Below, piece by piece: positions 8,504-8,718 of a stretch of 10,004 nucleotides of DNA. Position numbers and translations under genes: made by a program. Position 1 is the first letter of the stretch; every line of letters begins with the position of its first letter. The notes under the pieces are model-generated. The model searched no databases. It was not told the origin of the DNA and saw nothing but the letters and a program-made list of their open reading frames with translations. The DNA lies in UHGV virus genome UHGV-0134101. The stretch is one strand, 5' to 3'. Origin of the DNA: a virus.

Positions 8504-8611
8504 TACCCACTCCTTTTTGATGTTTTTTTCAGCATATCACGTGCCAAGCAAATCCATAACAAAACTAAATTAACCAATAAATCATAACCTTAATAACCAA
8601 CACAGAAATAA

Positions 8612-8654
8612 TTAACCATTGGTTATTGACTGAAAATAACCATTAGTTAATAAT
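8612..8654 (+). promoter_or_regulatory. OL-like operator pair overlapping a strong rightward sigma70-type promoter (pL-like)
   Basis: Two TAAC-N5-GTTA palindromes at 8613-8625 (TAACCATTGGTTA) and 8637-8649 (TAACCATTAGTTA), 24 bp apart, the same half-sites and spacing as the OR pair. -35 TTGACT (8626-8631), 17-bp spacer, -10 AATAAT (8649-8654). Confidence 0.55.
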
Positions 8655-8718
8655 CAATCCATCGAAACGAAACATCGACAGCTGAGCGAAGTTAGCCAGC
8701 GGCGGACAGCAAGTCGCC

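Follow-up and report, generated by a model that had tools for sequence, protein, structure and literature searches.

The regulatory regions that bear most closely on the locus analysed here are those of the phages phi80, HK639 and lambda, of the CP-933P prophage of E. coli O157:H7, and of the Shiga-toxin phages related to Shigella phage 75/02 Stx. For phi80, the operators used in this work were taken from GenBank annotation only (OL1-3 and the -35/-10 of pL in JX871397; the 'O-L region' in X13065). Counted from the leader of the pL transcript, phi80 OL1 spans -24..-6 and OL2 spans -47..-29. The annotated OL3 of phi80 (-91..-72) is non-palindromic, consisting of two direct AATCAACA half-sites, with a third half-site 19 bp further on.

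The switch of CP-933P has been footprinted and tested with reporters (PMC8630535), and looping between OL and OR has been shown for the repressors of lambda, HK022 and phiKO2 (PMC8053113). In a survey of regulation in Stx phages, 75/02 is the type of the 'Eru4' class; CI Clade III, one of the two clades associated with Eru4, is described as having no recognisable HTH and an unknown regulatory function (PMC8951638). The CI of 75/02 may belong to either clade. In the sources searched, we found neither a published operator analysis of the 75/02 Stx-group phages nor an earlier description of TTAAC-N5-GTTAA as a repressor-binding sequence.

Here, we analyse a stretch of 10,004 bp (hereafter the window) that is part of an E. 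coli prophage, its positions 5900-8700 being 100% identical to seven complete genomes. We conclude that a phi80-like lambdoid prophage very probably has its OL/pL module, specific to its immunity type, at positions 8541-8659, and we place the probability of this reading, which is drawn from sequence comparison, at roughly 0.87. The features of a lambdoid OL/pL region that were found are operators shared between OR and OL, their overlap with a sigma-70 promoter, synteny with phi80, and co-variation with the DNA-binding domain of the repressor.

Operators and promoter

The elements on which the argument is built are the following.

6315-6384: OR, with TAAC-N5-GTTA at 6315-6327, 6339-6351 and 6372-6384, the last of these over the cI start codon
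8613-8625: OL2-like operator TAACCATTGGTTA, directly abutting the -35 of the promoter; PWM score 25.5
8626-8654, + strand: pL-like sigma-70 promoter, with -35 TTGACT at 8626-8631, a 17-bp spacer and -10 AATAAT at 8649-8654
8637-8649: OL1-like operator TAACCATTAGTTA, within the pL spacer and overlapping the first base of the -10; top PWM score, 26.1

The first-pass annotation had described two sites at 8613-8625 and 8637-8649 that fit the OR half-site consensus, share the spacing of OR, bracket the -35 TTGACT and overlap the spacer and the -10 AATAAT of a rightward promoter. All of this was recovered: the centres of OL1 and OL2 are 24 bp apart, as are those of the OR pair at 6315 and 6339, and the two sites are placed relative to the hexamers as listed above. 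The three OR sites are contained within the 84-bp gap between cro and cI, at spacings of 24 and 33 bp. The pL hexamers agree with the consensus at 10 of 12 positions, and the promoter is one of only four promoter-like matches returned by a consensus scan of 6000-9300. It is on the + strand, which is also the strand of cI, and it points away from cI, with the cI operon lying between it and OR. The predicted start of the rightward transcript, at about A8661, coincides with the first base of a leader that is common to all immunity types.

The window contains TAAC-N5-GTTA five times, against 0.06 copies expected for the 10,004 bp scanned; in 200 shuffles the motif was never found more than once, and no shuffle reached five. 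All five copies are confined to the two intergenic regions that flank the cI operon, three in OR and two in OL. The half-site TAACC is likewise clustered: five of its 11 same-strand copies in the window (starts at 8571, 8585, 8594, 8613 and 8637) are packed into 80 bp. Clustering of TAACC never rose above three in 200 Markov simulations of the window, and under a conservative model trained on the region itself five copies were reached in 1 of 5000 runs. With a PWM derived from 17 distinct full sites, the five full sites score between 17.6 and 26.1 and the rest of the window at most 9.0; their ranks of 1 to 5 are circular, since the same sites trained the PWM. Neither motif counting nor the PWM scan yielded any further repeated motif common to OR and OL.

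An immunity cassette between phi80-like flanks

8264-8290, + strand: intrinsic terminator closing the cI-orf-YafO operon, just upstream of the 3' end of the 69-aa gene
8294-8503, - strand: 69-aa gene, next to OL in all immunity types; phrog_3975, of unknown function
8541-8659: immunity-specific cassette, which alone departs from phi80 while its flanks are near-identical
8660-8732, + strand: 5' leader (CATCGAAACGAAACATCGA...), conserved, of the transcript from pL, with the boxA-like TGCTTCTTTAACAA at its end (8719-8732)

In a megablast search with 8200-9300, the matches were the phi80 'O-L region' and the pL region of HK639. Pairwise alignment with phi80 shows that the left flank, which starts with the terminator, includes the 69-aa gene and runs to 8540, is almost identical, and that the right flank, from about 8658 (CCATCGAAACGAAACATCGACAGCTGAGCG...) up to the boxA-like TGCTTCTTTAACAA, is identical. 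The pL hexamers occupy the same offsets from the shared leader (-34..-29 and -11..-6) in the phi80 annotation and in the window, and the annotated OL1 and OL2 of phi80 enclose the window palindromes, which lie at -23..-11 and -47..-35, respectively. Window-type cassettes measure 120 bp, and most of the other types have 110-111 bp. A blastn search with the 123-bp cassette gave no match among deposited phages (50,697 records). Among 5,426 complete E. coli genomes, 9 carry the window-type cassette.

The repressor and its co-variation with the operators

6048-6293, - strand: Cro-like (YdaS-family) HTH protein; in every locus examined, its type goes with that of the operators
6378-7154, + strand: cI repressor of 258 aa, with an N-terminal DNA-binding domain (6378-6653) and a C-terminal S24 domain

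Pfam assigns a Peptidase_S24 domain to cI. On inspection of the alignment, residues ~93-258 are about 90% identical to phi80 cI and the first ~90 residues are unrelated to it; the FACGDG segment within residues ~93-258 presumably corresponds to the unusual Cys-Gly cleavage site of phi80. The N-terminal domain was approached by several searches. Pfam detected no HTH in that domain of the window, a PDB sequence search with the full cI gave no match, and a word-indexed protein search with the N-terminal domain returned only eight near-identical fragments. Among the homologues gathered by an exhaustive HMMER search, 21 of 50 carry Pfam HTH_3, and the profile built from the homologues matches the N-terminal domain structures of TP901-1 CI and P22 C2. 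Taken together, the HTH_3 matches and the profile match point to a divergent Cro/C1-type DNA-binding domain.

A swapped DNA-binding domain together with swapped operators on a common chassis is what classically marks out a different immunity specificity. When compared with imm80, the window has other operators, an N-terminal domain of about 23% identity and a Cro with 39% identity over 41 aa. Since the operators and the DNA-binding domain both differ, the window prophage does not belong to the phi80 immunity group, and it is predicted to be heteroimmune to phi80.

Related loci (91) were fetched with the 69-aa protein as anchor, and the conserved leader is present in 83 of all the loci then collected. 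The OL slot of these 83 loci holds at least eight clearly different cassettes, in a sample that is biased to one phage group because most of its loci were retrieved through the 69-aa gene. In every cassette type, a pair of related repeats (-47..-35 and -23..-11) surrounds a -35 of the form TTGAC or TTGC. The OL1/OL2 15-mers (at least 12 of 15 matches) recur almost only 1.6-3 kb upstream, in a tight cluster between cro and cI. When eight types were compared in a cross matrix, the diagonal cells contained 2-6 hits, most of them grouped at the OR of the type itself. Most off-diagonal cells contained 0-1 hits, which were scattered, and the highest off-diagonal count was 4.

For the repressor domains, the comparison took in the window and 40 loci, 41 sequences in all, whose cI has a C-terminal domain of the phi80 family. 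The OL type agrees with the type of the N-terminal domain in all 41, of which 17 are window-type and 24 phi80-type, and the variants of the C-terminal domain (79-100% identity to the window) are spread over both N-terminal classes. Fifteen of the window-type loci cover OR as well as OL, and each of them, like the window, has exactly five copies of TAAC-N5-GTTA. In those 16 sequences the spacings are constant (24 and 33 bp in OR, 24 bp in OL), and the distance between OR and OL ranges from 2013 to 2995 bp, as different cargo genes lie in between. When ten window-type cassette variants were compared, no change was found in either palindrome arm (TAAC, GTTA), in the two promoter hexamers or in any of the five TAACC copies. 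The substitutions are concentrated in the palindrome centres (8617, 8619 and 8620 in OL2; 8643 in OL1), at 8541-8555 and 8601-8605, and around the start site.

Part of this co-variation may reflect linkage, given that about 2.3 kb of DNA takes in OL, OR, cro and the N-terminal domain of cI; the shuffling of the C-terminal domain and the cargo genes between the elements argue against that explanation. Co-variation of the OR and OL half-sites among related prophages, a check suggested in the first-pass annotation, is seen in the 41/41 agreement and in the eight-type matrix.

The same operator motif in phage 75/02 Stx

A search of deposited phages with the N-terminal domain alone gave Shigella phage 75/02 Stx as the closest match (74% over 85 aa), with POCJ13 and phiSTEC1589-Stx1c at an equal score. 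In 75/02 Stx, the full-length CI is 78% and Cro 81% identical to the window proteins. Its OR consists of TAACTTCGAGTTA, TAGCTGACAGTTA and TAACGTATGGTTA, spaced 24 and 33 bp apart, with the last site again over the cI ATG. Its OL reads TAACTTTGAGTTA-TTGACT-N5-TAACCAACGGTTA-ATAAT, with the two sites 24 bp apart, and the pL core GTTATTGACT...GTTAATAATCA is identical. In contrast, the flanks are unrelated, the 69-aa gene is absent and the leader is a different one; of the three upstream TAACC copies only the first is kept, as AATTAACnAAnAAATCA.

Since motif, spacing and promoter core are the same in unrelated flanks, they are properties of the repressor family and not of the phi80-like chassis. 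The window thus has a related CI and Cro and the same operator motif and geometry as the 75/02 Stx-type (Eru4) immunity group, and to judge from these sequences the 75/02 Stx/POCJ13 group of Shiga-toxin phages probably has the same specificity. The proposal that the region is the OL/pL counterpart of the OR switch, which had been made from the window alone, is now strongly supported by collinearity with phi80, by co-variation over at least eight immunity types, by the same motif and geometry in an Stx phage and by the agreement of the predicted start with the beginning of the conserved leader.

Upstream half-sites and the divergent 69-aa gene

8531-8539, - strand: TGaTATGCT, a candidate extended -10 for leftward transcription, with the start predicted at about 8524
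8571-8598, + strand: array in which three TAACC half-sites share one orientation (starts at 8571, 8585 and 8594)
8571-8583: candidate sixth, weak operator TAACCAATAAATC; PWM score 9.0, rank 6 in the whole window

The three additional TAACC copies reported upstream of OL2 are present, are conserved in relatives and are found in the position of OL3. Specifically, 8571-8583 lies where the annotated OL3 of phi80 lies and is centred 42 bp from OL2. Among the ten variants, the block 8563-8600 with its three half-sites is conserved and the columns flanking it vary. Both phages have five co-oriented half-sites, starting in phi80 at -91, -79, -60, -47 and -24 and in the window at -89, -75, -66, -47 and -23. 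As a third operator, 8571-8583 is a half-consensus site, scoring 9.0 against the 17.6-26.1 of the full sites, and we read it, on sequence and position, as a weak distal OL3-like site. The segments 8585-8597 and 8594-8606 were also considered as full third sites and were rejected for their poor PWM scores (8594 ranks 11).

The 69-aa gene had been called convergent in the first-pass annotation. This holds relative to the cI operon; relative to the rightward promoter, the gene is divergent. The AlphaFold (AF2) model of its product is a three-helix bundle with a mean pLDDT of 77. The top Foldseek match, and the only notable one in the PDB, is E. coli YmgB/AriR (2oxl_A; TM 0.73/0.81, 28% identity, E 0.036). 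A weak Pfam YmgB match was found in 2 of 26 homologues of the protein. On the strength of the model, the product is possibly a YmgB/AriR-like three-helix protein.

At the place of the leftward -10, TGnTAYGCT is found in 78 of 84 sequences (the window and 83 loci), and the other six carry TGGTATGTT, as read by eye. The element is situated about 28 bp upstream of the ATG of the 69-aa gene, just outside the variable cassette, and was not reported by the promoter scan of 6000-9300. Since the left edge of the cassette is directly upstream of this conserved -10, all DNA upstream of the -10 is immunity-specific. The candidate promoter is overlapped by no full operator, and the nearest half-site, the OL3-like one, is centred about 53 bp upstream of the predicted start. 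Control of the 69-aa gene's promoter by the same operators is a possibility.

Alternative explanations

The role of the upstream array is the point at which a different reading deserves the most attention. The half-sites at 8571-8598 might regulate the divergent promoter of the 69-aa gene instead of acting as OL3 for pL. Repressor bound some 45-55 bp upstream would then activate or modulate that promoter, much as lambda cI at OR2 activates pRM, and the cassette would control two promoters. We consider this a tentative possibility, which draws on the position of the variable edge immediately upstream of the conserved extended -10 (78/84, with a close variant in six), on the conservation of the half-site block between variable flanks, and on a comparable array in phi80 that abuts the equivalent -35 position. 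Weighing against it, the candidate promoter is a by-eye call that the scan missed and that has no overlapping full operator, and the spacing from half-sites to promoter differs by about 10 bp between immunity types. Moreover, 75/02 Stx keeps one of the three half-sites though it has no 69-aa gene, which suggests that at least that site serves pL/OL. It is rather doubtful that the direct-repeat half-sites are the conserved non-palindromic OL3 of phi80-like phages through which the same repressor also regulates the divergent promoter of the YmgB/AriR-like 69-aa gene. If this were true, repressor would be recruited to direct repeats via cooperativity or OL-OR looping, and prophage immunity would be coupled to a host-modulating protein.

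As for the full palindromes, we think it quite improbable that they are primarily sites of Cro (YdaS-like) or of another protein of the immunity module, with cI recognising something else. Cro type co-varies with the operators as perfectly as the N-terminal domain of cI does, and for this reason cI sites and Cro sites are not separable by the co-variation data; moreover, Pfam gives no HTH in that domain, and related CI proteins have been described as HTH-less (PMC8951638). Yet the homologues of the domain match HTH_3 and their profile matches TP901-1 CI and P22 C2, OR and OL have no other repeated motif in common, and repressor and Cro have common operators in lambda, phi80 and CP-933P (PMC8630535). 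Cro probably uses the same operators as cI.

Nor does base composition account for the repeats. The region has only 29% G+C, and the window contains 46 copies of TAAC and 36 of GTTA, all of which would favour chance palindromes or AT-rich, UP-element-like promoter DNA. Against this stand five exact matches where 0.06 are expected, arms that are invariant around variable centres, type-specific co-variation with OR in eight immunity types, and the recurrence of the motif in the unrelated context of 75/02 Stx. The motif counts, the tracking of the repressor domain in 41/41 sequences, the cross matrix and the Stx phage effectively refute this explanation.

The pL leader and antitermination

9147-9182, + strand: hairpin identical to the 3' hairpin of the annotated putL-like antiterminator RNA of HK639

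The pL leader extends over about 540 nt and contains no + strand ORF longer than 42 aa. It begins with the phi80-like 5' part and its boxA-like element, continues with about 330 nt of intervening sequence, and reaches the hairpin at 9147-9182. We take TGCTTCTTTAACAA to be boxA-like by its resemblance to the rrn/lambda boxA consensus. The phi80 annotation has the boxA of nutL at the homologous place. The first 80 nt of the leader fold no better than shuffled sequence (z -0.24). An Rfam E-value scan of the whole window gave no match in 8500-9200, its sole match being a 16S-like fragment at 9635-9681.

The hairpin occurs in 32 of 84 sequences and is preceded by at least five unrelated upstream segments. 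The window resembles HK639 in the first ~45 nt of the leader, in the 3' hairpin and in the downstream ORF, the last two being identical; it differs from HK639 by about 360 nt of extra leader and by another predicted 5' hairpin. With regard to a put-type element, then, the window combines an HK639-identical 3' hairpin with a replaced 5' hairpin, no Rfam match and a fold z-score of only -1.3. With regard to the N/nut system of the phi80 type, the boxA-like TGCTTCTTTAACAA alone is present, and neither the nutL core nor an N homologue of phi80 was found in the window. An ORF in the position of N starts at 9984, behind CCGCATCAGCGGGTAACGACAGAGGGTAAG, an element that also precedes phi80 N, and runs off the end of the window; relatives with an identical immunity region carry phi80 N. 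Further downstream of the hairpin, two ORFs overlap on opposite strands (9200-9541, +; 9281-9460, -), and a codon-position test between them was underpowered, with only 22 variable columns.

A model for the switch

Taken together, the features of the OL/pL module suggest the following sequence of events, in which we infer the binding and its cooperativity, the looping and induction, where transcription starts and what OL3 does. In the lysogen, cI dimers would occupy two 13-15 bp TTAAC-N5-GTTAA palindromes, with OL2 at the -35 and OL1 in the spacer touching the -10. The 24-bp spacing would allow cooperative binding via the C-terminal domains, as with lambda-type repressors, and RNA polymerase would be kept off pL as long as OL1 and OL2 are filled. 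Upon DNA damage, the phi80-type S24 C-terminal domain would cleave itself and repression would be lost, whereupon pL would fire rightward from about 8661 into the conserved leader and the early-left genes. Cro would probably act on the same sites. The TAACC array, chiefly 8571-8583, would be the counterpart of phi80 OL3, a weak half-consensus distal site that may be filled only cooperatively or by OL-OR looping over 2.3 kb to OR. By analogy with the repressors for which it is known, such looping is plausible in the window prophage.

The analysis provides a concrete operator definition, namely TTAAC-N5-GTTAA, with two OL and three OR sites and 24-bp pairs, for an OL cassette that is in no deposited phage. 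Knowing the operators would permit the prediction of superinfection immunity and of cross-repression or co-induction among prophages. In addition, the locus shows in nature how a repressor can exchange its DNA-binding domain between recombination flanks that are conserved, with eight or more specificities in one slot, and such cassette exchange may help in building orthogonal repressor/operator pairs.

Comparison with known systems

The nearest system is that of phi80. The 69-aa gene and the leader up to boxA are near-identical in the two, both have two operators around the -35 at a spacing of 23-24 bp and an upstream OL3 built of co-oriented half-sites, and the C-terminal domains of the repressors are about 90% identical. 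They differ in the operator itself, which in phi80 is AATCAACA-N3-TGTTGATT (19 bp) and in the window TTAAC-N5-GTTAA, and in the N-terminal domain of the repressor and in Cro, which are unrelated or nearly so. In addition, the window cassette is 9-10 bp longer, and the nutL core and N gene of phi80 are missing from the window.

The PaaR2/YdaS/YdaT switch of CP-933P likewise has a YdaS-family Cro, a YdaT-family CII-like protein and a leaderless repressor gene, as well as a second set of operators with a PL-like promoter beyond the repressor operon (PMC8630535). Unlike the window, it uses 18-bp palindromes with the half-site GTTTAGTAA and a different repressor, encoded in a toxin-antitoxin operon (PMC8630535).

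The likeness to lambda is one of architecture. Tandem operators cover an early promoter beyond the cI operon, about 2.3 kb from OR, with 24 bp between OL1 and OL2 and a repressor that is cleavable through an S24 domain. Lambda has three full 17-bp operators, whereas the window has two full sites of 13-15 bp and a distal array that is degenerate, and there is no close relationship between the proteins. As far as the sequence indicates, then, the logic of the module is that of an ordinary lambda-type OL/pL region, and the part that we did not find described in the sources searched is the TTAAC-N5-GTTAA operator specificity.

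Leader of pL and the genes behind it

The leader of pL, the rightward early promoter at the left operator OL, is about 540 nt long (8661-9199, plus strand), and no plus-strand ORF longer than 42 aa is present within it. It consists of a phi80-like 5′ end, a middle part of about 330 nt, and a 3′ hairpin (9147-9182) that matches, at every base, the 3′ hairpin in the putL-like RNA of phage HK639. Among 84 sequences (the window and 83 related loci with a conserved leader), this hairpin is found in 32, where it follows at least five unrelated upstream segments. On the opposite strand, PGAP calls a 75-aa ORF with a TTG start (8643-8870), which is doubtful. 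Features of the leader and of the region immediately downstream are as follows.

8719-8732, plus strand: boxA-like TGCTTCTTTAACAA, within the phi80-like 5′ end of the leader
9200-9541, plus strand: 113-aa ORF, annotated in HK639
9281-9460, minus strand: "ECs_2282 family zinc-binding protein" (PGAP; NCBIfam, 62.8 bits)

The last two overlap on opposite strands and are rival annotations. The plus frame is open in 11 of 11 sequence variants, whereas the minus ORF carries a stop in two of the 11, among variants that differ little.

Between genes of the pL operon lies a 47-nt stretch (9635-9681, plus strand) that is a near-perfect match to positions 237-283 of bacterial 16S rRNA, which form one complete helix; the Rfam SSU model scores it at 32 bits (E = 2e-6). 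Ten further related loci, which represent several immunity types (operator/repressor specificities), share its core, GGTGAGGTAATGGCTCACC; so does L003, which is the window's prophage region in another genome and is counted apart from the 10. The stretch could be a mimic of the rRNA helix.

The plus-strand element CCGCATCAGCGGGTAAC, a small hairpin with a ribosome-binding context, occurs twice (9728-9744 and 9950-9966), each time directly 5′ of an ORF (9761-9949, and one from 9984 that is cut by the window end). In phi80, the same element stands before the N gene. The 62-aa CxxC ORF looks like an insertion that duplicated the element.

Genes between cI and OL

8264-8290, plus strand: intrinsic terminator, after the genes for the 194-aa protein and the YafO homologue
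8294-8503, minus strand: conserved 69-aa protein gene, adjoining OL

Downstream of the repressor gene cI, in the same operon, 7271-8265 (plus strand) encodes a 194-aa protein, for which no family match was found, and a homologue of YafO-family toxins (Pfam, 59.8 bits). This cargo is not constant among the related loci; in lambda, the equivalent position is held by rexAB.

The 69-aa protein is found across all immunity types of this phi80-like phage group and has no family annotation. Its predicted fold is a three-helix bundle, and the best PDB match of the predicted model is E. coli YmgB/AriR (TM 0.73/0.81, 28% identity, E = 0.036), a regulator of biofilm formation and acid resistance.

The repressor and its predicted promoter

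6342-6371: predicted pRM-like promoter, CTGACA-18-GATAAT

The N-terminal domain of CI (6378-6653) belongs to an HTH_3-related family, yet no Pfam HTH model matches it. A survey of Stx phages scored a CI clade tied to the same replication type as being without a DNA-binding domain (PMC8951638); the missing match may explain that score.

The predicted start of the pRM-like promoter lies at or near the first base, A, of the cI start codon ATG (6378), and hence a leaderless cI mRNA is implied, as in lambda and for PaaR2, the CP-933P repressor (PMC8630535). The third of the OR sites, the cro-cI operators, covers this predicted start. The central site overlaps the putative −35, unlike the activating geometry of lambda.
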